From assembly GCA_965658655.1 (NCBI GenBank), contig CBFHTA010000002.1:64001-128000 (forward strand): a stretch of 64,000 nt of DNA, read 5' to 3'. Positions within the stretch are counted from its first letter, which is position 1. Every line of letters begins with the position of its first letter. Source of the DNA: Candidatus Babelota bacterium (lineage in GTDB: Bacteria; Babelota; Babeliae; Babelales; CAIQNR01). Below are positions 2,996 through 40,462 of this stretch, one piece after another. The translations under genes were made by a program, and so were the position numbers. A model generated the notes under the pieces. The model had not been told where the DNA came from. It saw only the letters and a list, made by a program, of their open reading frames with translations, and did no database searches.

Positions 2996-3319
2996 ATGAA
3001 GAAAAATATTTTAGCGTTTATATTGATGGGTTTTATTGTGGGTGCTCAAATACAATGTGCAGATGCCCAATCAGGCAGTTTGTTGCGTTGGATTGTACCA
3101 ACAGTGGTCACAGCTGGTGTCGGTTACTATGTTTATAATGCATTTTTTAAGACTCAAAATGCGATCGAAGCAGATAAGCAAGAAAAGCTTACAAGGACAA
3201 AGAAGTATGTTCAAGCAAATAGGGCATCTAGAGGATTGAGTAATTCTGCAAGGCAGCTTGATGCAGTAAGAGAATTAAATGCAGCAATTAATAACAAGTT
3301 TAATAAGAATGTAGAGTAA
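2996..3319 (+). CDS. Small exported/membrane-anchored protein sharing its leader with the next gene
   Basis: GAGAGG RBS; MKKNILAFILMG signal plus TM segment WIVPTVVTAGVGYYVY. Confidence 0.75.
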   Translation: MKKNILAFILMGFIVGAQIQCADAQSGSLLRWIVPTVVTAGVGYYVYNAFFKTQNAIEADKQEKLTRTKKYVQANRASRGLSNSARQLDAVRELNAAINNKFNKNVE

Positions 3320-3338
3320 GGTAACTAGAGAGGTTATT

Positions 3339-4400
3339 ATGAAAAAATCTATCTTAAGTTTTATGCTGATGGGAGCACTTTTCGCTCCGTTTACCTTTTG
3401 TTCTGCTGCTCCAAAAAGAAGTATTACTGCTTTGGTTGTTCCTGCTCTAGTAACAGTTGGAGCGCTTTATTATGTTTGGTCTCATTGGAACAGCTCTCGT
3501 CCTGTTTTTTCTCAACCTAAAAGTTACGATTTTGCTCTTCCTGCAGCAACAAAAAAACATACAACAACTATTGATGTTATGCCTGCCTCAGAGTTAGGTG
3601 CTGTACCAGCACAACAAGCAGTGAAATTAATGCAATATTCTGTTATGCAACAAGGAGAAAACAACGATGGCGGTGCAAGTTGTGGGTATCATGCACTTAA
3701 GAATGCAATTGGTATTTTAACTAAAAATCATAATCTCTTTAATGATAGAGCATTCATTAAAAGACAGTTTAGTTTAGATCCAGGGACTTGGCGTGAATGG
3801 GTACAAGCAAAGCAGGGTGATAATGGCGAGTGGGTTCATACTGAGTTTTATGCAGATTTAATTACACGTGCATTTAATGAACGCAATATTAGATGTGGAT
3901 GGTCTATTCTTAATTCGCAAGGTCAGGCTATTAACGATGCTCATGTAGGGGAAGATATTTATGGGGTTTTCCGAATGTTAACATCAGAAGATGCTTATAA
4001 ACATGCTTTCTTTGTTAATACTGCAAGTGGTTATAATGTAGGGCAGCATGGACATTGGTTTGTGGTGATTATGGAAAAAGAAGCTCATGGACCAACAACA
4101 TATACGGTAATGGATTCTTTAGGTCATGAAAGGCACGCCGATAATACTGTTTGGACTATTATTAAAAGTATTCATCGCATTGCAAAAATTACTAGTCCAG
4201 AAGTGTTAGGAGATGAAAAACAAAAGACAAAAGTTTTGTTGCTAGATGTGGTTAATGGTTTATCTGATCAAAAGATGAATACAAACCAAAAAGAGAAATT
4301 AACAAGTATGGTTTTAGATCTTTATACAATTTTGCTTTCCCAAGGTGCAGTTGATGAAGAGATAAAAAAGGCGATGGTCAGGTTTATGGTTTTGGTCTAA
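3339..4400 (+). CDS. Exported papain-like cysteine protease, Josephin-like (putative deubiquitinase)
   Basis: Signal + TM, then QQ...SCGYHALKN (C115), AFFVN...GHWFVV (H239) and VMDSL (D259), in Josephin order. Confidence 0.7.
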   Translation: MKKSILSFMLMGALFAPFTFCSAAPKRSITALVVPALVTVGALYYVWSHWNSSRPVFSQPKSYDFALPAATKKHTTTIDVMPASELGAVPAQQAVKLMQYSVMQQGENNDGGASCGYHALKNAIGILTKNHNLFNDRAFIKRQFSLDPGTWREWVQAKQGDNGEWVHTEFYADLITRAFNERNIRCGWSILNSQGQAINDAHVGEDIYGVFRMLTSEDAYKHAFFVNTASGYNVGQHGHWFVVIMEKEAHGPTTYTVMDSLGHERHADNTVWTIIKSIHRIAKITSPEVLGDEKQKTKVLLLDVVNGLSDQKMNTNQKEKLTSMVLDLYTILLSQGAVDEEIKKAMVRFMVLV

Positions 4401-5524: not shown

Positions 5525-6168
5525 TGTTTTCGGAGCTTTCGTGCTTTTGGATAACTTAATTACAAGATTTCAGTGTATCATAAAACTTATATTTTGCATC
5601 AAAGATATCCTTTTTCCTGTGTACTTTTCTTTTTATACGGGGTGTTTTGCCCACCCCTTATAAAAAGGGCGCAAACTTAGCAGTATGATTGGTTTAACGG
5701 GTCGATGGACTGACTTCGCCTTCGCTTTGCTTGTGGGTCATTTCACCCCGGTGCCCCTGATAAATGACTTTCTATAGTGTTCCTATATGTAAATGGAAGC
5801 CTTAATTGTAGTGGAATGACGATCTAAGATGCGAGCGTCTGTCCTTCGTAGCTTTAACGAAGCAACATGTTCGATTTTTTCACTGCAAGGGAGATCAAAC
5901 CGTCCTGGAGCTTTGTGCGTCTTGATTCCAGCAGGGTACTTGTCTACCCCGTTGGGTGATGCCCGCATAGGACTCCACTCTTTAAGCTCAGCAAAAAACA
6001 ACCGAAATTATTTTCAACAATAAAAAGCCAACAGATTTCAACCTCTTTTTAAGGTCAAAATAACAGGTTATGAGTTTTTTATTGCATTTTGTTTCCTAGA
6101 TATCGTATCCTTGTCTTTAAGCGTAAAAAAATGAAATCGGGCAGAAGCCCAAAAAAATGGAGAAAATA

Positions 6169-6792
6169 ATGAAAAAAACACTAAAAATAACATTGCTTCT
6201 GTCTCTTGCATATGCAGGATCAGCAAACGCAATGTATCATTACAATAATGATGGTTCTGGGAGCAATGGTTCTACGAGCAATCCTTTCTCTACGAGCAGT
6301 GATGATGATAATTTTGATTCATATCCTACGAGATCTACGAGCAGTGATGATAATAATTTAGATCCTATAAACGGTGGCTCTATGATGAATAGTACAGGTT
6401 CAGGTGTGCCTATTTCGCCATCTCTTAGAAGAGAACTTTCTACGATGAGTACATCTGCGGCTTATCAGCTAGGTGTAGCAAATGGTAGAAAAGCAGCAGG
6501 TGGTAGCTCAGGTGGAATGAACTCATATGGTAACTCAGGTGGAATGACCTCAGGTGGTAGCTCAGGTGGAATGACCTCAGGTGGTAGCTCAGGTGGAATG
6601 AACTCATATGGTAACTCAGGTGGAATGAACTCATATGGTAACTCAGGTGGAATGACCTCAGGTGGTAGCTCAGGTGGAATGAACTCATATGGTAACTCAG
6701 GTGGAATGACCTCAGGTGGTAGCTCAGGTGGAATGAGCTCAGGTGGTAGCTCAGGTGGAATGAGCTCAGATGATAACTTTAGTAGTTACTAA
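6169..6792 (+). CDS. Exported low-complexity Gly/Ser/Met/Asn/Tyr repeat protein
   Basis: GGAG RBS, signal peptide MKKTLKITLLLSLAYAGSANA, SGGM-x5 repeats; downstream terminator. Confidence 0.8.
   Translation: MKKTLKITLLLSLAYAGSANAMYHYNNDGSGSNGSTSNPFSTSSDDDNFDSYPTRSTSSDDNNLDPINGGSMMNSTGSGVPISPSLRRELSTMSTSAAYQLGVANGRKAAGGSSGGMNSYGNSGGMTSGGSSGGMTSGGSSGGMNSYGNSGGMNSYGNSGGMTSGGSSGGMNSYGNSGGMTSGGSSGGMSSGGSSGGMSSDDNFSSY
6499..6768 (+). repeat. In-frame 27-bp tandem repeat (9 full units plus partial flanks)
   Basis: tcaggtggaatg followed by aactcatatggtaac (A), acctcaggtggtagc (B) or agctcaggtggtagc (C); order ABBAABABC from 6508. Confidence 0.95.
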
Positions 6793-6812: not shown

Positions 6813-6846
6813 AAAAAAGGCACTTTCATTTGAGAGTGCCTTTTTT
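6813..6846 (+). terminator. Intrinsic terminator
   Basis: aaaaaaggcactttca-tt-tgagagtgcctttttt. Confidence 0.85.
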
Positions 6847-6919
6847 AATTTCTAGCTTTTTTCAGATTACTTCTATTATCTTTAAAGTATCTTATTTTGA
6901 AATTAGAAGGGGTAATGGA

Positions 6920-9529
6920 ATGAAAAAATTGATTGTTTTGTTAGTGTTGTTATGTGGAACTGGTTCTTTTATGCAGGCACCAGATGCTTTCACAGATTTT
7001 ATGACTCAGGCAGGAGATCATGAAGATAGTGGAAATTCAATTAATAGTCAGTCTGATGGCGGAGAGGGAGATAAACAAGATAGCCAAGAAGAACAAATAC
7101 TTGATGATAGAGGTCATGATTCTCAATCATCCAATTCTTCTAGTCGAACAATACAAAGAACTATTTCTTGGGGTGATGATCCAGTAGAAGACCCAAACAC
7201 TGCAGGAAACAGAGGAGAAGGGGCTACGATTGATAACAATGCAAATATCCCTTCTGCAACACAGATGGCGACTGACAATGCAACAAGCGCATCACGAGGA
7301 TTATATCTAAAAGATACGCGTTTAGAAAGCGTAGATGATGAAAATAGCAATTTCTTTAGTTCCCTTTCTCCGGAAGATCAAAAGTTAATGCGAGATAATA
7401 GAGATTTAATCTCAGAACATATGATGGATAAACTTATTGATAAAAAATTATTTGGGGAGAGACCTTTAAGAGAAGGGGAAACCAGGGAATCTATTATTAA
7501 TAAATACAAAGGGCGGAAAATAACAGTTGAGGCACAGGCGCGACGTGCGGCATCTGACGATACAGGAGTAAAAAAACCAGTTGATCGTAGTCAGCGATCG
7601 TTAACTACGGAACGTGAGTTTGATCCTCAATATAGTCCTCTAGAAGTAAGCGATTCAGATAATGAAGAACAATTCAACATGCTTAATGAAAGTAGAAGTC
7701 AGACCGATGATAGCGAGAATCGTCAATTGGCGACAAGAAACACAATGCTTAATAATGATTCTCCAGATGTTTTTTTTAGGAGTCTTTCAGAAGAAGATAA
7801 AGGATTTTTGCAAGGACGCATTGATGATAATAATCAGACTTCAGCAATCAGAAAGATATTTGAAGAAGAAGGCTTGGAGGGGCGTTCTAAAAGAGATGTG
7901 TTTGATGAATATAAAGCTGATTTTGCTTCCGAAGAAGAACCTGAAAATTTGCAGCATTCAGAAGGTTTAGAAGGTGACATTAAAGAGCTCGAAGCAAAGA
8001 TAGAGAGAGGTGAGGGGTCGTATTCAGATGAACGTTATCTTAAGGAACTTAAAGATACTTTAAAGAAGAGACAGGAATCTTTAGCAAATATAATGGACGC
8101 AACAATGGAAAGCAAAGAAAGATTTTCTGGTGATTTAAACCTTACTCAACGAAGTTCAACCGAACTTGCCAATTATCGTTCAGAAGCTCTTAAAGATCAA
8201 ATTGAAAAGGCACGATCAAGACTTGCAAGAGTAGATCGTGCAGAGAAAGAAGACATTGCTAAAGCTCTTGAGCGATTGGGTGATGATGCTACTGATCAAG
8301 AAAAAGATGCCGCTATAGAAAAAGCCAAAGAAGGTTTAAGTGCCGATAGGAAAAGTCTTGAGGGCGAACTTAATGGGCTTTTAGCAAAAGATCAAACGGT
8401 GGGGCAGTATCTTACTATGAGCGATAGGGATCGAGCATTTAAGTTTCTAGATGCTGTTAGTCAAGAGGTTGACCAAAGGGAAACTTCTTTTGAACAACGG
8501 AAAGAAGGTGATCAAAAAGATCCTGCAACATTTTTTTCTAGCAGTAGGAGTATGCAGGATAGGCTGGGGAAGTATGAAAAGTTATTGACTTCAAAAAGTA
8601 TGAATGAATTAGCAGATGAAGATCCTCAATTCAAAGATAAAAGACAGGCTCTTCTAGATAGAGTTGAAAGTCAATTTGATGCTTTGAGAGATCGAGAAAA
8701 TGAGCTTCTTCCTGTTCGAGCAGATAAGATTTTGGAAGAAATTAATCGTTCAGATGAACAAGGGAAACGATCTTTTAATATTATAGAATCAGATTTAAAC
8801 ATGCTTGAAAAACGAATTGAAAAACAAAAAGAAAAGCTTGAGGAAGGTGAGGTTTCACCAGATCCAGGTAAAATGGAAAATCTTGATAAGGCTCAACAGA
8901 AAGTTCAAGAAGCATATGATAATCTTGGTAAAAAAATTATAGAAACATTTAACAAACAAGTTAATAGCTTAGACGGAGAAGTAGAGCATTATCTTGCTTT
9001 GAAAAAAGGTACTCGAACACAAGAAGAATATAATGTATTGAGCAGTGACGCAGGAAAAGTTTTTAATGAATTGGGAACTCGCATTGACAGTCTTGCCAAG
9101 CAAGAAAAAGCTTTAGGAGTTAAGGAAACTACAAAAAGAAGTTGGTGGTTTGGAAAAAAAAGAACCATCATAGATGACAGTGATGTGTCGGAAGAAGATA
9201 AGGCAAAAGTAAAAGAAATACAAGAACAGAAGGAACAACTGCAAGCGCTACAAGAACGATCAAGAGAAATGTATTCTCGGGTGGAAAATACCGATCCTAA
9301 AAATGCACGTGGTTTTAGATCTCTTAGAAAGCGTTTCCAATGGGGTTTTTTAAGTAGCGAACCTGCGCCAAAAAGATATTCGTTTGATGATTTGAGCCGG
9401 TTAGGCGATTCAGGACGAAACAAACTATCTAAAGAAAATTTGGAGCAATATTCGAACCGTATTAATCAGACTCAAGATCCTCAAGGCCAACCTAAAAAGG
9501 GTAGGTCTTTCTTTAGTAAAAAAGGCTAA
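6920..9529 (+). CDS. Large exported acidic/coiled-coil protein (869 aa), candidate effector
   Basis: Start reassigned to MKKLIVLLVLLC after AAGGGG RBS; disordered N-half, coiled-coil C-half. Confidence 0.8.
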   Translation: MKKLIVLLVLLCGTGSFMQAPDAFTDFMTQAGDHEDSGNSINSQSDGGEGDKQDSQEEQILDDRGHDSQSSNSSSRTIQRTISWGDDPVEDPNTAGNRGEGATIDNNANIPSATQMATDNATSASRGLYLKDTRLESVDDENSNFFSSLSPEDQKLMRDNRDLISEHMMDKLIDKKLFGERPLREGETRESIINKYKGRKITVEAQARRAASDDTGVKKPVDRSQRSLTTEREFDPQYSPLEVSDSDNEEQFNMLNESRSQTDDSENRQLATRNTMLNNDSPDVFFRSLSEEDKGFLQGRIDDNNQTSAIRKIFEEEGLEGRSKRDVFDEYKADFASEEEPENLQHSEGLEGDIKELEAKIERGEGSYSDERYLKELKDTLKKRQESLANIMDATMESKERFSGDLNLTQRSSTELANYRSEALKDQIEKARSRLARVDRAEKEDIAKALERLGDDATDQEKDAAIEKAKEGLSADRKSLEGELNGLLAKDQTVGQYLTMSDRDRAFKFLDAVSQEVDQRETSFEQRKEGDQKDPATFFSSSRSMQDRLGKYEKLLTSKSMNELADEDPQFKDKRQALLDRVESQFDALRDRENELLPVRADKILEEINRSDEQGKRSFNIIESDLNMLEKRIEKQKEKLEEGEVSPDPGKMENLDKAQQKVQEAYDNLGKKIIETFNKQVNSLDGEVEHYLALKKGTRTQEEYNVLSSDAGKVFNELGTRIDSLAKQEKALGVKETTKRSWWFGKKRTIIDDSDVSEEDKAKVKEIQEQKEQLQALQERSREMYSRVENTDPKNARGFRSLRKRFQWGFLSSEPAPKRYSFDDLSRLGDSGRNKLSKENLEQYSNRINQTQDPQGQPKKGRSFFSKKG

Positions 9530-19005: not shown

Positions 19006-20364
19006 ATGAAGTGTCGCTTTTTCGGGTTATTCTTGTTGGTGTCTATGCAAGTTAATGCTGTAACTGTATTCAGTGATACAAACCCGCCTGGGAAATGGAC
19101 ACACGAAGAGGTTGCTGCCGGAAGTCTTGATAGTAGTTTTAGTTCCGATGGCAAGGTAACCACTGCTATTGGTAGTGGTAATGATAGTATTTGGGGAGTT
19201 GCTATTCAGCCTGATGGTAAGATTGTAGTTGCCGGTGAAAGTCATAATGGTTCAAATGATGATCTTGTAGTGGCGCGTTATAACAGTGATGGGTCTCTTG
19301 ATATGAGATTTGGGGATTCTGGCCAAAAAATTACTACTTTTGGTAGTAGCGAGGATCATGGATATGGAGTCGTGATCCAACCTGATGGTAAAATTGTAGT
19401 TGCCGGTGATAGTAATAATGGTTCAAATTATGATTTTGCTGTTGTAAGGTATAACAGCGATGGTTCTCTTGATGCTACTTTTAATAGTACCGGCAAAGTT
19501 ACCACTGCTATTGGAAGTGGTCACGACATTGGACGGTCAATCGCTCTTCAGCCTGATGGTAAGATTGTAGTTGCTGGTTATAGTCATAATGGTTCTGATT
19601 ATGATTTTGCCGTTGTACGGTATAACAGCGATGGTTCTCTTGATACTACTTTTAATAGTACTGGTAAAGTAACCACTGATATTAGTGGCGCTACAGAATT
19701 TGGATATGGAGTTGTGATTCAACCCGACGGTAAGATTGTAGTTGCTGGTGCGAGTTACAATGGTTCTGATTATGATTTTGCCGTTGTGCGTTATAACAGC
19801 GATGGTTCTCTTGATACTACCTTGAATAGTACCGGTAAAGTAACCACTGCTGTTGGAGCTAGTAATGACTATGGTAGAGAGATCGCTCTTCAGCCTGATG
19901 GTAAGATTATAGTTGCTGGTTATAGTGACAATGGCTCAAATGATGTTTTTGCTGTTGTGCGTTATAACAGCGATGGTTCTCTTGATACTACTTTTAATAG
20001 CACCGGTAAAGTAACCACTGTTGTTGGGAGTAACGATAGTTTTGGTTATACAGTGTTACTTCAATCTGATGGTAAGATTATAGTTGCCGGTAGAAGTAAC
20101 AACGGTTCAGATAATGATTTTGCTGTTGTGCGTTATAACAGCGATGGTTCTCTTGATACTACTTTCGATTCTGATGGTAAAATAGCAACTGATTTTGGAA
20201 GTGGAGCAGATAGTGTTTATGCTCTTGCTCTTCAATCCGACGGTAAAATAGTCGCGTCTGGATTAGCAGATAATGGTTCAAACACTGATTTCGCATTAAC
20301 TCGATATAGTAATAATATTGCTTCGCTTAAATTAGCAAAGCGAGACATAGGCTTTGTGGCGTAA
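19006..20364 (+). CDS. Exported delta-60 repeat (DUF5122-like) beta-propeller protein
   Basis: Seven Q(P/S)DGKI(V/I) repeats, mostly followed by RYNSDGSLDxxF; signal peptide. Confidence 0.9.
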   Translation: MKCRFFGLFLLVSMQVNAVTVFSDTNPPGKWTHEEVAAGSLDSSFSSDGKVTTAIGSGNDSIWGVAIQPDGKIVVAGESHNGSNDDLVVARYNSDGSLDMRFGDSGQKITTFGSSEDHGYGVVIQPDGKIVVAGDSNNGSNYDFAVVRYNSDGSLDATFNSTGKVTTAIGSGHDIGRSIALQPDGKIVVAGYSHNGSDYDFAVVRYNSDGSLDTTFNSTGKVTTDISGATEFGYGVVIQPDGKIVVAGASYNGSDYDFAVVRYNSDGSLDTTLNSTGKVTTAVGASNDYGREIALQPDGKIIVAGYSDNGSNDVFAVVRYNSDGSLDTTFNSTGKVTTVVGSNDSFGYTVLLQSDGKIIVAGRSNNGSDNDFAVVRYNSDGSLDTTFDSDGKIATDFGSGADSVYALALQSDGKIVASGLADNGSNTDFALTRYSNNIASLKLAKRDIGFVA

Positions 20365-20454
20365 ATTTGGCATGTTTCTATCTTGACGAGACTGATAAAA
20401 ACATGTCAAAGTGAAGAACTAACCTGTCTTTTAACTAAGCGTAAGGAGAGAAAG

Positions 20455-21732
20455 ATGAAACGTTATTTTTTGGGGTTATTACTAGTGGTGTCTGCGCAAA
20501 TTAATTCTGTAGTTGTGTATAATGATGCAAATCCTCCCGGGAAATGGACCCATCAAGAGGTTACGCCTGGGGTAATAGATATTACTTTTGGTAGTAATAA
20601 TACCGGGTATGTAACTGCTGACTTGGGGATAAATGATCAAGATCATCAAATTAATGCTTTGGTTAAACAATCTGATGGTAAATTAGTAGGTGCCGGGTAT
20701 AGCAACAATTCGAGCGACAAGACACGTTGGGCCTTAGCACGTTTCAGTGAGGATGGAGTGCTTGATACTACTTTTGGTGGAAGTGATACAGGATATGTGT
20801 TTTTGAATTTCGGTGATAGCAATGTAGATCATACTCTTTATGCGTTAATTCAGCAAGCTGATGGTAAATTAGTGGCTGCAGGATTTAGCAGAAATTCAAG
20901 TGGATACAATAGATGGGCGTTGGCACGCTTTAGTAAAGATGGAGTTCTTGATACTACTTTTGGTGGGAGTGATACCGGGTATGTTTTCTTAGATTTTGGT
21001 GATAGTTCTCGTGATCATGAGATTAATGCTCTTGTAGAAACTTCTGAAGGAAAGTTAGTTGCTGGTGGTTATAGTGATAACACTGATGACGATGAACGTT
21101 GGGCCCTTGCAAGATTCAGTAAAGATGGCGTGCTCGATACCACGTTTGGTGGGAGTGACACCGGGTATGTTTTCTTAGATTTTGACACGGGAGGTCAGGA
21201 CCATGAGATTAATGCTCTTGTAGAGACTGCTGAGGGTAAGTTAGTTGCAGGTGGACATAGTGATAATGCAAGCAATAAAAAGAGTTGGGCACTCGCAAGA
21301 TTTAGTAAAGAGGGAGTGCTCGATACCACGTTTGGTGGTAACAGTACGGGTTACGTTACATTAAATTTTGGTGATGCTACAAGAGAACATACTTTGCGTG
21401 AACTGATTCTTCAGAGTGATGGAAAGTTGTTAGCTGGTGGTTATAGCGATAATACGAGTGATATGAATAGATGGGCAATTGCACGGTACAGTGAAGATGG
21501 AGTGCTTGATACTACTTTTGGTGAGAGTGGTACTGGATATGTCTTTTTGAATTTTGGTGATGATAGCAATGACCATGAAATTGATGCAATGCTTTTAGAG
21601 AGCAACGGAAAGATAGTAGTAGCGGGCGCAAGTGAACTTACCGGGAGTTATGAACGCTTTGCCTTGGCCCGTTTTAGTAATAATATTCCACCCCTTAATT
21701 TGATAGCTGCTTTTGCAGGAATGTTAGGATAG
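20455..21732 (+). CDS. Exported delta-60 repeat beta-propeller protein, paralog 2
   Basis: Six xxGK(L/I)...RWALARFSxDGVLDTTFG-type repeats; start MKRYF after AAGGAG. Confidence 0.9.
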   Translation: MKRYFLGLLLVVSAQINSVVVYNDANPPGKWTHQEVTPGVIDITFGSNNTGYVTADLGINDQDHQINALVKQSDGKLVGAGYSNNSSDKTRWALARFSEDGVLDTTFGGSDTGYVFLNFGDSNVDHTLYALIQQADGKLVAAGFSRNSSGYNRWALARFSKDGVLDTTFGGSDTGYVFLDFGDSSRDHEINALVETSEGKLVAGGYSDNTDDDERWALARFSKDGVLDTTFGGSDTGYVFLDFDTGGQDHEINALVETAEGKLVAGGHSDNASNKKSWALARFSKEGVLDTTFGGNSTGYVTLNFGDATREHTLRELILQSDGKLLAGGYSDNTSDMNRWAIARYSEDGVLDTTFGESGTGYVFLNFGDDSNDHEIDAMLLESNGKIVVAGASELTGSYERFALARFSNNIPPLNLIAAFAGMLG

Positions 21733-36075: not shown

Positions 36076-36996
36076 ATGAATTTTAAACAATACGGTATTG
36101 CTCCGGTTCTTTTTTTACATGCAATTTTTCCACTTATTTTTAGCATTGGCAAAGTAGGAATGTTGTATGCACCATTTTGCTTTTTTATTGCTTTGCGTGC
36201 ATTAAGTTGTGGTCTTTTTTCTATGAGTGTGTATTTACTTACAGTTAAAGAGAGAAAACCGGTAGAGAAGAAAGACAGAGCGCTGCTTGTGCTTGCCGGT
36301 CTGTTTGGAATTTATCTTACTTTTATTCCTGAGTTTTGGGCGCTACAGTATTTGTCTGTAGGTAAAGTTGCCTTTATTTTTGTACTGGCACCTTTTTTTA
36401 CTGCTCTTTTTTCCCGACTGCATGGGTTAGAAACGTTCAGTTATAAAAAGATCTTAGGGCTTATGATTGGATTTCTTGGATTCCTTCCAATCCTTATGAA
36501 TAAAACGGGCGCAGAGCTAAGCTTTAAGTCTTTTTTTAGTTTTGACTTGCCCGAAGTAGCTTTAATCTTTGCGGTAGGCTGCTATGCATACAGTTGGGTC
36601 ATCATCAAGCGTCTAACAAAACAATCTAATTATTCCCCGTGGTTTGTTAGTGGTTTTTCTATGCTAGAAGGTGGATTTGCTGCGCTTTTAACATCATTCT
36701 TTTATGATGGTTGGTATACGGGTGTTTCTCCGGTAACCGAGTGGGCTCCACTATTATTCTATGTTTTCTTGCTAATGAGTGTAGCGATCACTGTATTTGT
36801 TCTTTATATCTACTTACTGAAAGAATACTCGGCAACCCTTATTTCATTCTTTGGATTCACTCGATCATTCTTTGGAGCTTTTTACGGATGGCTCTTCTTG
36901 GGTGAGGTGGTTCCTTGGATTTTTTATCCTTCGGTCTTAGTTGTTTCAGTTGGTTTATACTTATTCTACCAAGAAGAGTTGTCGCTAGAAGGGTAA
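36076..36996 (+). CDS. DMT/EamA transporter 1
   Basis: Ten TM segments, two EamA repeats, C-terminal YLFYQEE. Confidence 0.9.
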   Translation: MNFKQYGIAPVLFLHAIFPLIFSIGKVGMLYAPFCFFIALRALSCGLFSMSVYLLTVKERKPVEKKDRALLVLAGLFGIYLTFIPEFWALQYLSVGKVAFIFVLAPFFTALFSRLHGLETFSYKKILGLMIGFLGFLPILMNKTGAELSFKSFFSFDLPEVALIFAVGCYAYSWVIIKRLTKQSNYSPWFVSGFSMLEGGFAALLTSFFYDGWYTGVSPVTEWAPLLFYVFLLMSVAITVFVLYIYLLKEYSATLISFFGFTRSFFGAFYGWLFLGEVVPWIFYPSVLVVSVGLYLFYQEELSLEG

Positions 36997-37086
36997 AAGA
37001 ACTCTTTTCTTTAAAATATCTTGACGGTAGCATGTTTTTCCTCACAGAATTAATAGATAAATTTAAATTATTAATCAGAGGGTGCA

Positions 37087-37254
37087 ATGGATATTTTTCA
37101 GCTAGGTGTTATTCCTGTTTTCGCTTTAATATATGGCTATGAGTGGTTAGGGGTACCAATTTCCTGGGCATTGATACCTTCTGTGGGTGTAGTTTTAATC
37201 GGTTTATATTTATTCTATCAAGATGAATTACATGCGGGGAAGGGGAAACAGTGA
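37087..37254 (+). CDS. 55-aa mini protein homologous to the last two TM helices of the DMT neighbours
   Basis: MDIFQLGVIPVFALIYGYEWLGVPISWALIPSVGVVLIGLYLFYQDELHAGKGKQ; GAGGG RBS; stop overlaps next start (GTGA). Confidence 0.65.
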   Translation: MDIFQLGVIPVFALIYGYEWLGVPISWALIPSVGVVLIGLYLFYQDELHAGKGKQ

Positions 37255-38168
37255 ATCTAAAAAGATTTGGTATAACTCCACTGATTCTTTTATATATGGT
37301 GTTTCCGTTAATGTTTAGTCTTAGCAAAATGGCTATGAACTATACTCCCCCAACAACTTTTATTGCCCTTAGAATGATATCTGCAGGCCTTGTTCTTCTT
37401 GTGTGTTTTCTATTGCAACATAAAGAGCGCTATACCATTATTTGGGAAGATGCGCGTCTGTTTTTTAAAGCGAGTCTCTTTGGTATTTATTTAACATATG
37501 TCCCTGAACTTTGGGCTTTGCAATATTTGTCTGTAGCTAAAAGCGCTTTTCTTTTTGTGTTGGCACCATTTTTTACTGCACTCTTTGCACATTTATATGA
37601 AAAAGAATCGTTTTCTTTTAAAAAGATAATAGGTTTGATTGTAGGTCTGATTGGTTTTATTCCTATGTTGATTGCAACCACGGGCCAAGAAGAAACTTTT
37701 AAAAGTTTTTTTAGTCTTAACTTGCCAGAAGTTATTACTATTTTATCTGTTGCTTTTTATGCCTATAGTTGGATCCCCATCAAACAATTAATGAACGAAA
37801 AAAAATATTCTCCTTGGTTGATCAATGGAATAACTATGTTAGGTGGCGGATTGGGTGCTGCAGCAACTTCTTTTTTTTGTGATGGATGGTATAAGGGAGT
37901 CTGTCCTATCACTGATTGGAAAGCTGTATCCTTCTATGTACTTTTAACACTTTTTGTTGGCGTTTTTTGTTATATTCTCTATACTTACCTTTTAAAAAGT
38001 TTTTCTACGACATTAGTTTCGTTTTTTTGCTTTACAGAACCGTTTTTTGCAGCTTTTTATGGCTGGTTTTTTTTAGGTGAAAAGGTTTCTTATTGGTTCT
38101 TTATTTCTATTTTTATTGTATCAATAGGGTTGTATATTTTTTATCAAGAAGAGTTACAAATAGGGTGA
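37251..38168 (+). CDS. DMT/EamA transporter 2
   Basis: Close paralog of 36076-36996 (PELWALQYLSV, APFFTALF). Confidence 0.9.
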   Translation: MNLKRFGITPLILLYMVFPLMFSLSKMAMNYTPPTTFIALRMISAGLVLLVCFLLQHKERYTIIWEDARLFFKASLFGIYLTYVPELWALQYLSVAKSAFLFVLAPFFTALFAHLYEKESFSFKKIIGLIVGLIGFIPMLIATTGQEETFKSFFSLNLPEVITILSVAFYAYSWIPIKQLMNEKKYSPWLINGITMLGGGLGAAATSFFCDGWYKGVCPITDWKAVSFYVLLTLFVGVFCYILYTYLLKSFSTTLVSFFCFTEPFFAAFYGWFFLGEKVSYWFFISIFIVSIGLYIFYQEELQIG

Positions 38169-38171
38169 ATC

Positions 38172-39071
38172 ATGCTTTCTATTGTATTTTTTTACGCAGT
38201 CATGGCTGGTGTTTTTACGGTTGGTAAACAGGTAGTACTTTATGCCTATCCCTTTTTTTTAACCGCATTGCGTCTTCCTGCTGGAGGATGTGTATTTTTA
38301 GCCTTTGCATATTTTTGGCAAAAGCACCCATTTAAAATAACAAAACCAATTGCTCTTTTACTCCTAGGTTACGGGGTAGGGACTGTCTTTATGGATTCAG
38401 GCCGATTCTTTGCCTTACAAACATTACCTGCAGCAAATACAGCATTAATAACTTCTCTTGCACCATTTGTAGCCGCACTTTTCTCTTACCTATTTCTAGG
38501 TGAACATATAACATACAGAAAAATTATCATTTTGGGCGTTGGATTTATGGGTATGCTTCCATTGTTTATTGCTCGTGCAGATACATCTCTTGGGGGCATG
38601 AACACTAATGATTTGATGTTTGCTTATGGTTCTGCTTTTTGTTCAATGCTTGGTTTTGTATTGATAGGTTTATTTGTAAAACTTCTAACAACCCGTTATA
38701 AAATGCCACTTTTTATGGCTTTGGGATGGGGAATGTTGTTAGGTGGTTTAATAGGTTTAGTATGCTCTTTACTGTTTGACCCATGGAATCCAGTACCCTT
38801 TATCAACGCATCAAAAGCATGGCCTATTGTAGTGTACTTATTCTTTACTCATAATTTACTTGCTTATCCCTTGTATGGTTATTTGCTTGAACATTATCCG
38901 TTAACATTAATTGCGTTCGCTCAACTACTTACTCCACTTTTTACTGCAATTTTACGATTAATTTTGTTTCATGAACCGATTTCATTACCATTCATGATTT
39001 CATTTACTATTTTGGGTGGCGCGCTTTATCTTTTCTACAAAGAAGAAGAAAAAGAAGGGTTGATCACATAA
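38172..39071 (+). CDS. DMT/EamA transporter 3
   Basis: EamA pattern APFVAALFSYLFLGE; C-terminal YLFYKEE. Confidence 0.9.
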   Translation: MLSIVFFYAVMAGVFTVGKQVVLYAYPFFLTALRLPAGGCVFLAFAYFWQKHPFKITKPIALLLLGYGVGTVFMDSGRFFALQTLPAANTALITSLAPFVAALFSYLFLGEHITYRKIIILGVGFMGMLPLFIARADTSLGGMNTNDLMFAYGSAFCSMLGFVLIGLFVKLLTTRYKMPLFMALGWGMLLGGLIGLVCSLLFDPWNPVPFINASKAWPIVVYLFFTHNLLAYPLYGYLLEHYPLTLIAFAQLLTPLFTAILRLILFHEPISLPFMISFTILGGALYLFYKEEEKEGLIT

Positions 39072-39089
39072 AAACAACAAGGGAATTGA

Positions 39090-39452
39090 ATGTATAAGTA
39101 CTTGTTTGTGTTGTTCTTAATTCCACTGAATATTCTTACGATGGATGATAGTACCCCTGAGTCGCAAAATGAGATCGAGCAGACTGTGCCTTTTCGTAAA
39201 AACAGCATTGCGATAAGGAAACGAAGAGAAGAAAAGGATGCAGAAGATAAAGAATTTCGAAAAAAATGTAATGCTTCAGGGCTAACATCTATGCTAACCT
39301 TAGAAGCTTTAAAAAAGCATGTGGGGCAAAGTCAGAATGATAATGACAACACATTTAACCCATCGATAAAAACTCCTCAAAAACGCGGTGTTTCTTGTGA
39401 AGAGGTTGAGCAAACCAAAAATAAATACCTTTTTTGCTGTGTATTGATTTAA
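39090..39452 (+). CDS. Small exported protein with a C-terminal CaaX-like motif
   Basis: Signal peptide; ends KNKYLFCCVLI*. Confidence 0.75.
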   Translation: MYKYLFVLFLIPLNILTMDDSTPESQNEIEQTVPFRKNSIAIRKRREEKDAEDKEFRKKCNASGLTSMLTLEALKKHVGQSQNDNDNTFNPSIKTPQKRGVSCEEVEQTKNKYLFCCVLI

Positions 39453-39550
39453 TTCTTAATTCTCATTAGTAAAAATCTGACAGGTATTGTTTTTTCTTGT
39501 AGTATTGCAATGATATTGATTTTGAAAACCTCTCTAAGAAAGGGCATACG

Positions 39551-40462
39551 TTGTTAGCAATACTTTTGTTGTACGCGTTGTTTGGTACTACGTTTATTTT
39601 GGGGAAAGAAGCTGTTTCGATTGTCCCCCCAATTTTCTTCATTGGTGTTAGGATGATGCTTGCAAGTATTATTCTTCTAGGGTTCATTAAACTCTGGCAA
39701 CGCGAATCTTTAGCTGTTAAACGTAAAGATGTTCCATGGTTTGTAGGAATTGTGCTCTTTCATATTTACATTGCCTATGTTTTTGAATTTGTAGGAATGC
39801 AGTACCTGACAGGAGGAAAAGCTTGTTTAATGTATAATCTGTCACCTTTTATTACTGCTTTATTTTCGTACATTTTCTTTAGTGAAGTTATGACACTCAG
39901 AAAATGGATAGGTTTAGCTATTGGATTTCTAGCTTTTATCCCAAGCTTAATTTTTCAGACTTCAGCGCAAGAAGCTAGTGCTGGTGGATTTGGATTTATC
40001 TCTTGGGGAGAACTGTTGTTGATCATCTCAGTAGTTTCTGCTTCTGCAGGTTGGATTTTTATGAGAAAGCTTACTCGTGAGCTTGGGTATTCATACTTCT
40101 TTGTGAATACAGTGGGAATGCTTGGAGGGGGTATTTTAGCGTTGGCAACCTCTTATCCGCTTGAAGTGTGGCCTTCTTGTAATAGTTTAATAACCAATTG
40201 GCCATTTTTGTATACACTTTTTGGTCTCATTTTGATTGGAAATATTATTTGCTTTAATTTATACGGTTATCTTTTGGCTAGTTATTCCGCAACCATATTA
40301 TCATTTTTTGGTTTTGTAACACCACTTTTTGCGGCCCTTTTTGGTTGGCTGTGGTTGGGAGAGACTGTTCATTGGACATTTTATGTGACGGTTGCATTGG
40401 TTACATTTGGTCTTTATGAATTTTATCAAGAAGAACTTAAGCAAGGGTATATTCTTAAATAA
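39551..40462 (+). CDS. DMT/EamA transporter 4, chlamydial SAM/SAH transporter-like
   Basis: EFVGMQYL...KACLMYNLSPFITALFSY...; C-terminal FYQEELKQGY. Confidence 0.88.
   Translation: MLAILLLYALFGTTFILGKEAVSIVPPIFFIGVRMMLASIILLGFIKLWQRESLAVKRKDVPWFVGIVLFHIYIAYVFEFVGMQYLTGGKACLMYNLSPFITALFSYIFFSEVMTLRKWIGLAIGFLAFIPSLIFQTSAQEASAGGFGFISWGELLLIISVVSASAGWIFMRKLTRELGYSYFFVNTVGMLGGGILALATSYPLEVWPSCNSLITNWPFLYTLFGLILIGNIICFNLYGYLLASYSATILSFFGFVTPLFAALFGWLWLGETVHWTFYVTVALVTFGLYEFYQEELKQGYILK

Follow-up and report, generated by a model that had tools for sequence, protein, structure and literature searches.

A candidate membrane-anchored, circularly permuted Ulp1-like cysteine peptidase of the Babelota and its phylum-wide family of putative ubiquitin or ubiquitin-like proteases

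Introduction

The closest described relatives of the protein analysed here are nine signal-peptide-bearing proteins of Babela massiliensis, in which a "derived, circularly permuted" Ulp1 homolog is combined with an AAA ATPase; at that time the permuted form was stated to be unique to Babela massiliensis, and SUMO was favoured by homology (Pagnier et al., 2015; PMC4378268). In our literature search, Babela and Ulp1 were found together only in this report. Here we describe a peptidase gene in a 64,000-nucleotide stretch of DNA from a Candidatus Babelota bacterium (contig CBFHTA010000002.1, positions 64,001 to 128,000; hereafter the window), whose product, the window protein, belongs to the same group of enzymes. 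The family, first noted computationally in Babela massiliensis, turns out to be phylum-wide and architecturally diverse, and to date, as far as our searches reach, it has no Pfam or NCBIfam model, structure or assay.

Effectors with deubiquitinase (DUB) activity are well described in other intracellular bacteria. According to a 2026 review, all known bacterial DUB effectors have either a papain (CA) or a permuted adenain (CE) fold (PMC13720258), and bacterial CE effectors are mostly DUBs (PMC4961225); the papers on bacterial DUBs that we consulted contain no mention of the Dependentiae, the phylum to which the window belongs according to the few labelled records. As in the window protein, a hydrophobic anchor precedes a DUB-type domain in Cdu1/ChlaDUB1 of Chlamydia and in SnVTD and SnOTU of Simkania, and their proposed role is to keep the pathogen-containing membrane free of ubiquitin (PMC13720258). 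These proteins are delivered by type III secretion, whereas the sole secretion system found in Babela was of type II (PMC13720258; PMC4378268). A further comparable case is EmcB of the Legionellales, a DUB family that likewise derives from a circularly permuted eukaryote-type fold and spread in one lineage (PMC12501173). However, the parent fold of EmcB is OTU and not CE, its Cys helix has moved to the C-terminal end, and EmcB proteins are Dot/Icm substrates with experimentally shown activity (PMC12501173).

Conserved catalytic blocks of the window protein

The original prediction for this gene, made from the letters of the sequence, named a series of motifs and read them as those of a membrane-anchored, Josephin-like protease. 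A script-based check found all of these motifs in place, namely QQ (residues 104-105), SCGYHALKN (114-122, including C115), GEW (163-165), AFFVN (223-227), a stretch of 11 residues between N227 and H239, HWFVV (239-243) and YTVMDSL (255-261, including D259). They fall into four blocks of CE type: Q105...C115-G116, W165, H239-W240 and D259-S260-L261-G262. Q105 is the candidate for the oxyanion hole and C115, at the start of helix 115-127, the candidate nucleophile, while H239 is located at the start of a strand and D259 after a hairpin.

The three blocks reported for Babela, QQED-GSSCGYHALYN, GHWLSSxEIE and HW..C.V.K....FIFADSLG (PMC4378268), have their counterparts in QQGENNDGGASCGYHALKN, GEWVHTEF and HWFVVIMEKEAHGPTTYTVMDSLG, respectively. 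Since GHWLSS falls on P-G-x-WLND of Ulp1 in the Babela alignment (PMC4378268), the GEW of the original prediction corresponds to the tryptophan block of Ulp1-type enzymes.

Homologue searches gave seven close homologues in a collection of 5.8 billion proteins and 50 relatives among 1.84 billion cluster representatives (E ≤ 0.001). A profile search in a 90%-clustered database added at least 16 proteins, none of which carries a Pfam annotation among the matches listed. We compared conservation in two alignments, A1 with the 8 closest sequences and A2 with 52 sequences down to about 25% identity. Invariant positions in A1 include Q105, D110, G111, C115, G116, Y117, H118, N122, W151, W165, H222, N227, H239, W240, D259 and S260. 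Three of these, C115, H239 and S260, are invariant in A2 as well, and Q105, Y117, H118, N122, W151, W240 and D259 are conserved to at least 90%; at the Trp block the A2 consensus includes G-x-W-L. Each of the four blocks listed above, with L261 and G262, is invariant in A1 and conserved in A2.

Sequence links to the CE clan and the permuted order

In order to place the family, profile models were scanned against 98 proteins, comprising the window protein (E ≤ 1), 44 relatives (P series; E ≤ 0.1) and 53 open reading frames (ORFs) of the family from related genomes (L series; E ≤ 0.01). Models of the CE clan matched 8 of the 44 relatives and 6 of the 53 ORFs. On the Cys side, residues 126-156 of P0038 correspond to positions 157-187 of Peptidase_C48 with 29.1 bits (E 1.1e-6), above the cut-off of 20.7, residues 83-121 of P0040 correspond to positions 161-199, and the adenain C5 model matches L027. 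On the His side, Peptidase_C48 matches P0028 (509-543 on positions 87-120, E 9.5e-4), P0030 (471-496 on 93-116, E 8.7e-4), P0013 and P0022, with a range of positions 87-136 for the P series, as well as L026 (226-276 on 93-144, E 6.1e-4) and L030. P0038 is the one family member above the Pfam C48 cut-off, with several others slightly below it (19.5-20.1 versus 20.7 bits). Additional matches came from the ElaD/SseL model (P0034, P0040, L037) and the RickCE model (P0049, L034, L039), and the NCBIfam ElaD/SseL deubiquitinase model covers P0028 from the Trp to the His block (446-529) with an E-value of 2.5e-4, a match that falls far short of the cut-off of that model.

When the family profile was compared with all PDB sequences, the sole papain-like match was the Ulp1 domain of CidB over the HW...DS block (E 0.23). 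The published HHpred analysis of the Babela proteins points in the same direction, with PLN03189 (SUMO protease) at a probability of 91.2 and two separate matches to PF02902, one at 89.4 (query 280-391 versus template 2-135) and one at 75.1 (query 28-62 versus template 148-182; PMC4378268).

The two halves of the enzyme are arranged in swapped order. This can be seen from the residue positions of the blocks in the window protein (115, 165, 239 and 259), where the Cys block is N-terminal. Canonical CE enzymes, on the other hand, carry the Trp block, His-Trp, Asp and then Gln...Cys along the chain, and the canonical C48 genes of the same phylum also have the order His...Asp...Gln...Cys. The Cys-first arrangement is a common trait of the relatives, as the Cys motif precedes HW...DS in 39 of the 39 proteins (out of 52) matched by both regular expressions. 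CE-like sequence combined with a Cys block in front of the His block argues that the family is circularly permuted. In this respect the window protein, with its Cys helix first, differs from Ulp1/SENP, Den1, XopD, NopD, SseL, ElaD, CidB, OtDUB, RickCE and adenain, and it also differs from canonical CE proteases by the longer Gln-Cys spacing (10 residues) and by the His and Asn that follow the Cys (C-G-Y-H-A-L-K-N).

With the Babela family the window protein shares the order of the blocks, an N-terminal signal-like sequence and the phylum, and AAA-fused members are retrieved by the family profile. However, it has neither an AAA ATPase nor the insert of about 140 residues that separates the Cys helix from the Trp block, and it carries an additional hydrophobic helix as well as a three-helix bundle at its C-terminus. 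Compared with the medians of 117 family sequences, its Cys-His spacing is short (124 versus 266), while the Trp-His (74 versus 82) and His-Asp spacings (20 versus 19) are similar. The 124-residue spacing and the missing AAA ATPase characterise the window protein as a compact stand-alone form of the family.

Structure comparison

In the full-length AlphaFold2 model (pLDDT 71), two helices at the N-terminus are followed by a disordered linker (57-92), then by a globular domain and, at the C-terminus, by a three-helix bundle. Residues 93-285 modelled alone with a deeper alignment reached a pLDDT of 93.1 and a pTM of 0.90. Taken together with the conservation, this domain model bears out the assignment as a papain-fold cysteine peptidase with intact Gln, Cys, His and Asp and a His-Trp "gatekeeper".

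When the domain model was used for an exhaustive VIA-align search, nearly all matches were papain-fold cysteine peptidases, for the most part DUBs, and the scores were modest. The highest scores belong to the M48 tegument DUB, TssM and an OTU (5.8 each) and to staphopain C (5.6), next to the Josephins PcJOS (5.6), PaJOS (5.5) and ATXN3L (5.5). As these top rows are tied, the structure indicates a papain-fold, DUB-like enzyme and no further. Nearly all of the nearest structural neighbours are DUBs, and the Josephin rows are tied with those of USP, OTU and tegument DUBs.

Among the CE-clan structures, XopD (5.4), CidB (5.2), NopD (5.2), OtDUB (5.1), the ASFV protease pS273R (5.0), adenain (4.9), SseL (4.7), SENP2 (4.6), Den1 (4.5) and LupA (4.2) were retrieved. 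Every one of them aligns only to model residues of about 61-192, that is from just before the Trp of GEW to the end of the domain, with starts at model residues 61-72 (protein residues 153-164). The aligned range of XopD (328-455) stops before the Cys that is mutated in 2oix (C470A), and, to go by the Cys positions of the other CE chains, these presumably also end short of the Cys helix. Thus, the Trp/His/Asp half superposes on CE-clan structures without the Cys helix being included. Among the best 1000 chains of Foldseek, the top VIA rows were all from the CE clan.

Spread and architectures of the family

For the spread of the family we used a profile search across 151 genomes sampled from the phylum of the window. 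The family is present in 68 of these genomes and in 46 of 96 genera, with 0 to 11 matches per genome, several of which may fall in one gene. For canonical Peptidase_C48, a search of this set of 151 genomes gave matches in just 2.

The architectures are diverse. An AAA ATPase is fused to the peptidase in 12 of the 53 ORFs and in P0028, RanBP2/NZF zinc fingers, which are known to bind ubiquitin, are present in two ORFs (E 5e-11 and 4e-9), ankyrin repeats in one, and weak RING matches, below the Pfam cut-offs, in one. UIM-like motifs were detected in 3 of 52 proteins, with 0.37 expected from 200 shuffles (maximum 3). An N-terminal hydrophobic segment is found in 55 of 68 family proteins and a second one before the catalytic Cys in 37 of 68, which makes the two-helix N-terminus a trait of the family.

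Some relatives occur in tandem. L004 (3579-8596) contains three family genes in a row, of which two include RanBP2/NZF zinc fingers. L037 (256-6015) encodes a protein of 1920 aa with three tandem peptidase domains and an AAA ATPase, and L048 (1235-4633) one of 1133 aa with two tandem peptidase domains. It is possible that these arrangements are relics of a duplication route to the permutation, in which the outer halves would have been lost after a tandem duplication. Such a route agrees with, but is not proven by, the relatives that have tandem domains and the long insert of variable sequence that lies behind the Cys helix and in front of the Trp block.

Besides the peptidases, the phylum also encodes ubiquitin-related proteins. 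PF00240 (ubiquitin) was detected in 6 of the 151 genomes, and a near-eukaryotic ubiquitin domain is embedded in signal-peptide proteins of L053 (1495-1722) and L059 (both G052:C9) and of L054 (G033:C9). These domains reach Pfam scores of 96-97 bits and 58 bits and end in LVLRWS, LVLRIK and LILRRAG, without a Gly-Gly. Judging by these ends, the proteins may be mimics that can be neither conjugated nor cleaved.

Proposed function and alternative explanations

Based on these data, the window protein is probably an exported, membrane-anchored effector of the circularly permuted Ulp1-like (CE) family that deconjugates ubiquitin or Ubl (ubiquitin-like) modifiers in a protist host. A ubiquitin or Ubl substrate in the host is suggested by the CE-clan affinities, by the His-Trp gatekeeper and by the NZF and UIM-like modules of the relatives, as well as by the AAA fusions and the obligate intracellular lifestyle. 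Because an AAA ATPase needs ATP, the fusions argue for action in the host cytoplasm. In SENP and Ulp1 enzymes, the Gly-Gly tail is clamped in a tunnel made up of the Trp of the WLND block and the Trp that follows the catalytic His; in the window protein, W165 and W240 would hold the Gly-Gly tail of ubiquitin or of a Ubl modifier. C115, at the N-terminus of its helix, would be the nucleophile, activated by H239, which in turn would be oriented by D259, and Q105 would contribute to the oxyanion hole. In this way, the enzyme would cut ubiquitin or Ubl modifiers off proteins of the protist host, with ubiquitin, SUMO, NEDD8 or another modifier as inferred candidates. The signal-like segment and the second hydrophobic helix would route the protein into the Sec pathway and anchor it in a membrane, so that export is presumably Sec-dependent. 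The proposed function as a whole is in line with the description of a His-Trp "gatekeeper" as typical of Gly-Gly-specific ubiquitin and Ubl proteases (PMC7391069), and with the biology of the phylum, whose members are obligate intracellular parasites of protists with a large share of signal-peptide-bearing proteins, presumed effectors included (PMC6561590; PMC4378268).

Several points weigh against this assignment. The window protein itself has no CE-clan profile match (Pfam at E ≤ 1; PF02902 against the genome at E ≤ 1), and therefore the CE link rests on more divergent members of the family and on the published HHpred result for Babela. Neither Pfam, NCBIfam nor PDB sequences gave a useful match to the window protein, and the same holds for a PDB search with the close-family profile. 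Using hhalign, the family profile aligned over HW...DS only, both with one canonical C48 domain (E 0.071, probability about 1%) and with an alignment of two C48 sequences of this phylum (E 0.035, probability about 1%). Neither match is significant, and templates as thin as these make the comparison uninformative; a homologue search for a fuller C48 profile gave a single protein. With Foldseek, neither the full-length nor the domain model gave a match at E ≤ 0.001. The C-x-x-H-x-L-x-N spacing after the Cys, pointed out in the original prediction, would be a Josephin-like feature. Moreover, a literature search for Dependentiae or TM6 together with ubiquitin or DUB returned no biochemical study of any member. 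Topology is a further point. If a cleaved signal peptide is followed by a membrane helix after 4-5 residues, classical insertion rules predict that the domain faces the bacterial cytoplasm, which is a poor fit for an effector unless export is unconventional. Going by the two predicted helices, they may instead form an uncleaved hairpin or an anchor for a host-facing membrane. Finally, the CE clan includes acetyltransferases with the same triad (PMC7391069), so that protease activity is not guaranteed.

Only tentatively would we go one step further and regard the window protein as the minimal membrane-anchored prototype of a phylum-wide set of active ubiquitin or Ubl proteases, in which the CE fold has been re-permuted to a Cys-first order and which are delivered by Sec. 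The same caution applies to its consequences, which we hold to be possible but rather doubtful: a third type of chain topology among bacterial DUB effectors, a way to the host that needs no type III or type IV injection, and tandem relatives that mark the duplication route. Specificity could then be unusual, for example directed at a Ubl of protists or at a cleavage site that is shifted.

Returning to the assignment as a permuted CE-type effector, we weighed it against other papain-fold families. That the protein is a true but distant bacterial Josephin, acting as a conventional DUB or as a ubiquitin C-terminal clippase, is in our view quite unlikely. Its catalytic residues Q105, C115, H239 and D259 follow each other in the Josephin order Gln, Cys, His, Asp, and the spacings of 124 (Cys-His) and 20 (His-Asp) are near those of the solved bacterial Josephins PcJOS (C162/H284/D300), PaJOS (C66/H187/D203) and BpJOS (C69/H166/D182; 10.1101/2024.07.24.604956). 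However, this order is common to most papain-fold families and hence not discriminating. The homology to Josephins claimed by the original prediction found no support in sequence: among the 98 proteins there was not one match to the Josephin (PF02099), UCH, OTU, USP or C39 models, PF02099 had no match in the six-frame translated source genome (E ≤ 1), and the family profile retrieved no Josephin chain from PDB, neither a solved bacterial nor a human one (E ≤ 10). All profile links lead to the CE clan, with the blocks in permuted order, as published for Babela (PMC4378268). Likewise, no Josephin is listed among the best 1000 chains of Foldseek, while many CE-clan chains are. Compared with BpJOS, PcJOS and PaJOS (10.1101/2024.07.24.604956), there is no detectable sequence relationship and the structural scores are no better than those of USP, OTU and tegument DUBs. 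The guess of a membrane-anchored cysteine protease of DUB type remains reasonable, given the DUB neighbours and the NZF- and UIM-like-bearing relatives, but its assignment to the Josephins was probably wrong.

Very unlikely, too, is a CE-type triad that serves another chemistry, such as that of a YopJ-like acetyltransferase, or a competent protease with a host substrate other than a Ubl. In its favour, the clan holds not only acetyltransferases but also dual enzymes with these very residues, and DUB activity is not guaranteed by an aromatic residue behind the His, with lpg1949 as the example (PMC7391069). Furthermore, the best of the weak Foldseek rows include two YopJ-family structures, PopP2 and Lem17 (E 0.075-0.096). 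The profile matches, in contrast, are to Ulp1/C48, ElaD/SseL, RickCE and adenain, with none to the YopJ model, both clamp Trp residues of Ulp1 type are conserved, and the NZF fingers and UIM-like motifs of the relatives, as predicted from their sequences, would point to ubiquitin binding.

We also assign little probability to a housekeeping peptidase of the cell envelope whose substrates would be exported proteins of the bacterium itself and not of the host, for instance a C39-like double-glycine peptidase or another processing enzyme of papain-like type. Such a role would suit the N-terminal signal-like segment with its membrane helix, and also the position of the gene among ordinary housekeeping genes (dnaK, recA, RNase Y, dnaB, dnaN and tRNA synthetases, among others) and next to ychF, an adjacency that is found again in another genus (L020). 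Look-alikes from a protein language model were C39, C58 and IpaJ-type clusters (0.86-0.91), which is within the chance range and gives leads only. Yet no C39-family profile (C39, C39_2) matched any of the 98 members, the AAA-fused relatives cannot work in the periplasm as they need ATP, and other relatives carry NZF, ankyrin and RING-like modules of eukaryote type. In addition, the patchy and expanded spread (0-11 per genome, 68 of 151 genomes) is the pattern of an effector family and not of a core envelope enzyme. A permuted OTU of the EmcB type was considered and rejected, as the Cys is C-terminal there and no sequence link exists.

A Cys-first, re-permuted CE enzyme had previously been noted only computationally, in one genome paper from 2015, and was thought to be confined to a single species. 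What is new is the occurrence of the permuted family in roughly half of the genomes sampled across an entire phylum that parasitises protists, and its range of architectures, which includes stand-alone membrane-anchored, AAA-fused, NZF-fused and tandem forms. With its compact domain of 193 residues and a confident model, the window protein offers a convenient construct for the first biochemical or structural work on the family. Such work bears on the question of how Sec-exported effectors of the Dependentiae reach host ubiquitin.

Gene organization and genomic context

The features of the gene and its product are compiled in Table 1. By hydropathy analysis, the protein is hydrophobic in two stretches, one at residues of about 4-24 and one at about 28-47. 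The C-terminal three-helix bundle is confined to the four closest sequences of A1 (P0001-P0004), and a structure search with it returned generic helical-bundle matches only.

Table 1. Features of the peptidase gene, its product and the adjacent upstream ORF (window positions).
Feature	Position	Strand	Evidence or remark
Peptidase gene, 353 aa, stop codon included	3339..4400	+	ORF list; 100% self-match P0001 and 7 close homologues
Shine-Dalgarno-like AGAGAGG	3327..3333	+	5 nt 5' of ATG
Signal-peptide-like segment, residues 1-23 (MKK, hydrophobic core, C-S-A)	3339..3407	+	Hydropathy; helix 2-19 in full-length model
Second hydrophobic helix, residues 28-48 (membrane anchor or hairpin partner)	3420..3482	+	Hydropathy; helix 29-48 in model
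Linker, residues 49-92, variable, low-confidence	3483..3614	+	pLDDT <50 for 57-92; gapped and poorly conserved in A1
Catalytic papain-fold domain (permuted Ulp1/CE-like), residues 93-285	3615..4193	+	Domain model; structural neighbours
Gln/Cys block QQGENNDGGASCGYHALKN, residues 104-122	3648..3704	+	Conservation; equivalent P0038 block matches Peptidase_C48; present in Babela family
GEW, residues 163-165 (W165), equivalent to the tryptophan block "WLND" of Ulp1	3825..3833	+	W165 invariant in A1; Babela HHpred alignment
Strand AFFVN and His-Trp block, residues 223-243 (H239 putative general base, W240 putative aromatic gatekeeper)	4005..4067	+	Conservation; Peptidase_C48 matches in relatives
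YTVMDSL, residues 255-261 (D259 putative third triad member; S260)	4101..4121	+	Conservation; aligned to CidB "yyADSLG"
C-terminal three-helix bundle, residues 293-353	4215..4397	+	Helices 290-307, 315-334 and 340-352 in full-length model
Small upstream ORF, 107 aa from MKKNIL start (best start 2996)	2996..3319	+	BLASTP; synteny

The peptidase gene lies only 19 nt behind the stop of the upstream ORF (3319), and the two genes are probably co-transcribed. Their products share 42% identity over residues 1-48 of both (BLASTP, E 7e-10). A scan for promoters and terminators around the peptidase gene gave nothing above the shuffled expectation. In a relative of the same genus, the peptidase gene has the same surroundings and again follows a homologue of the small ORF. 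Together with the ORF at 2267-2902, the small ORF forms a pair of genes for small signal-peptide proteins immediately upstream of the peptidase gene; the order of the pair is kept in the same-genus relative, with 63% identity for the first and 36% over 58 residues for the second. A family of membrane proteins is also encoded beside the Ulp1-like genes of Babela (PMC4378268).

The source genome (0.93 Mb in 4 contigs, 95% complete) has one copy of the family. USP, OTU, Josephin and canonical C48 were not detected in it, and the USP and OTU profiles were silent in control genomes as well, which makes these two negatives weak.

A labelling problem was encountered among the related contigs. JBLICC010000025.1 (L002) is titled Alteromonas naphthalenivorans, yet its genes share synteny with the window, with protein identities of 61-89%, and are identical to those of a genome of the same genus (G135). 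Hence, the species label of this record looks wrong.

Elsewhere in the window, a signal-peptide protein at 6157-6792 consists mostly of Gly/Ser-rich tandem repeats (GGMNSYGNSGGMTSGGSS...) and has no Pfam match. It is followed at 6830-9529 by an acidic, coiled-coil-rich protein of 899 aa with an internal signal-like start, for which the Pfam matches are all sub-threshold. Two neighbouring DUF5122 beta-propeller genes lie at 19006-21732 (E 5e-92 and 2e-55), and four consecutive genes for EamA-family transporters at 36076-40462 fit a metabolite-scavenging lifestyle.

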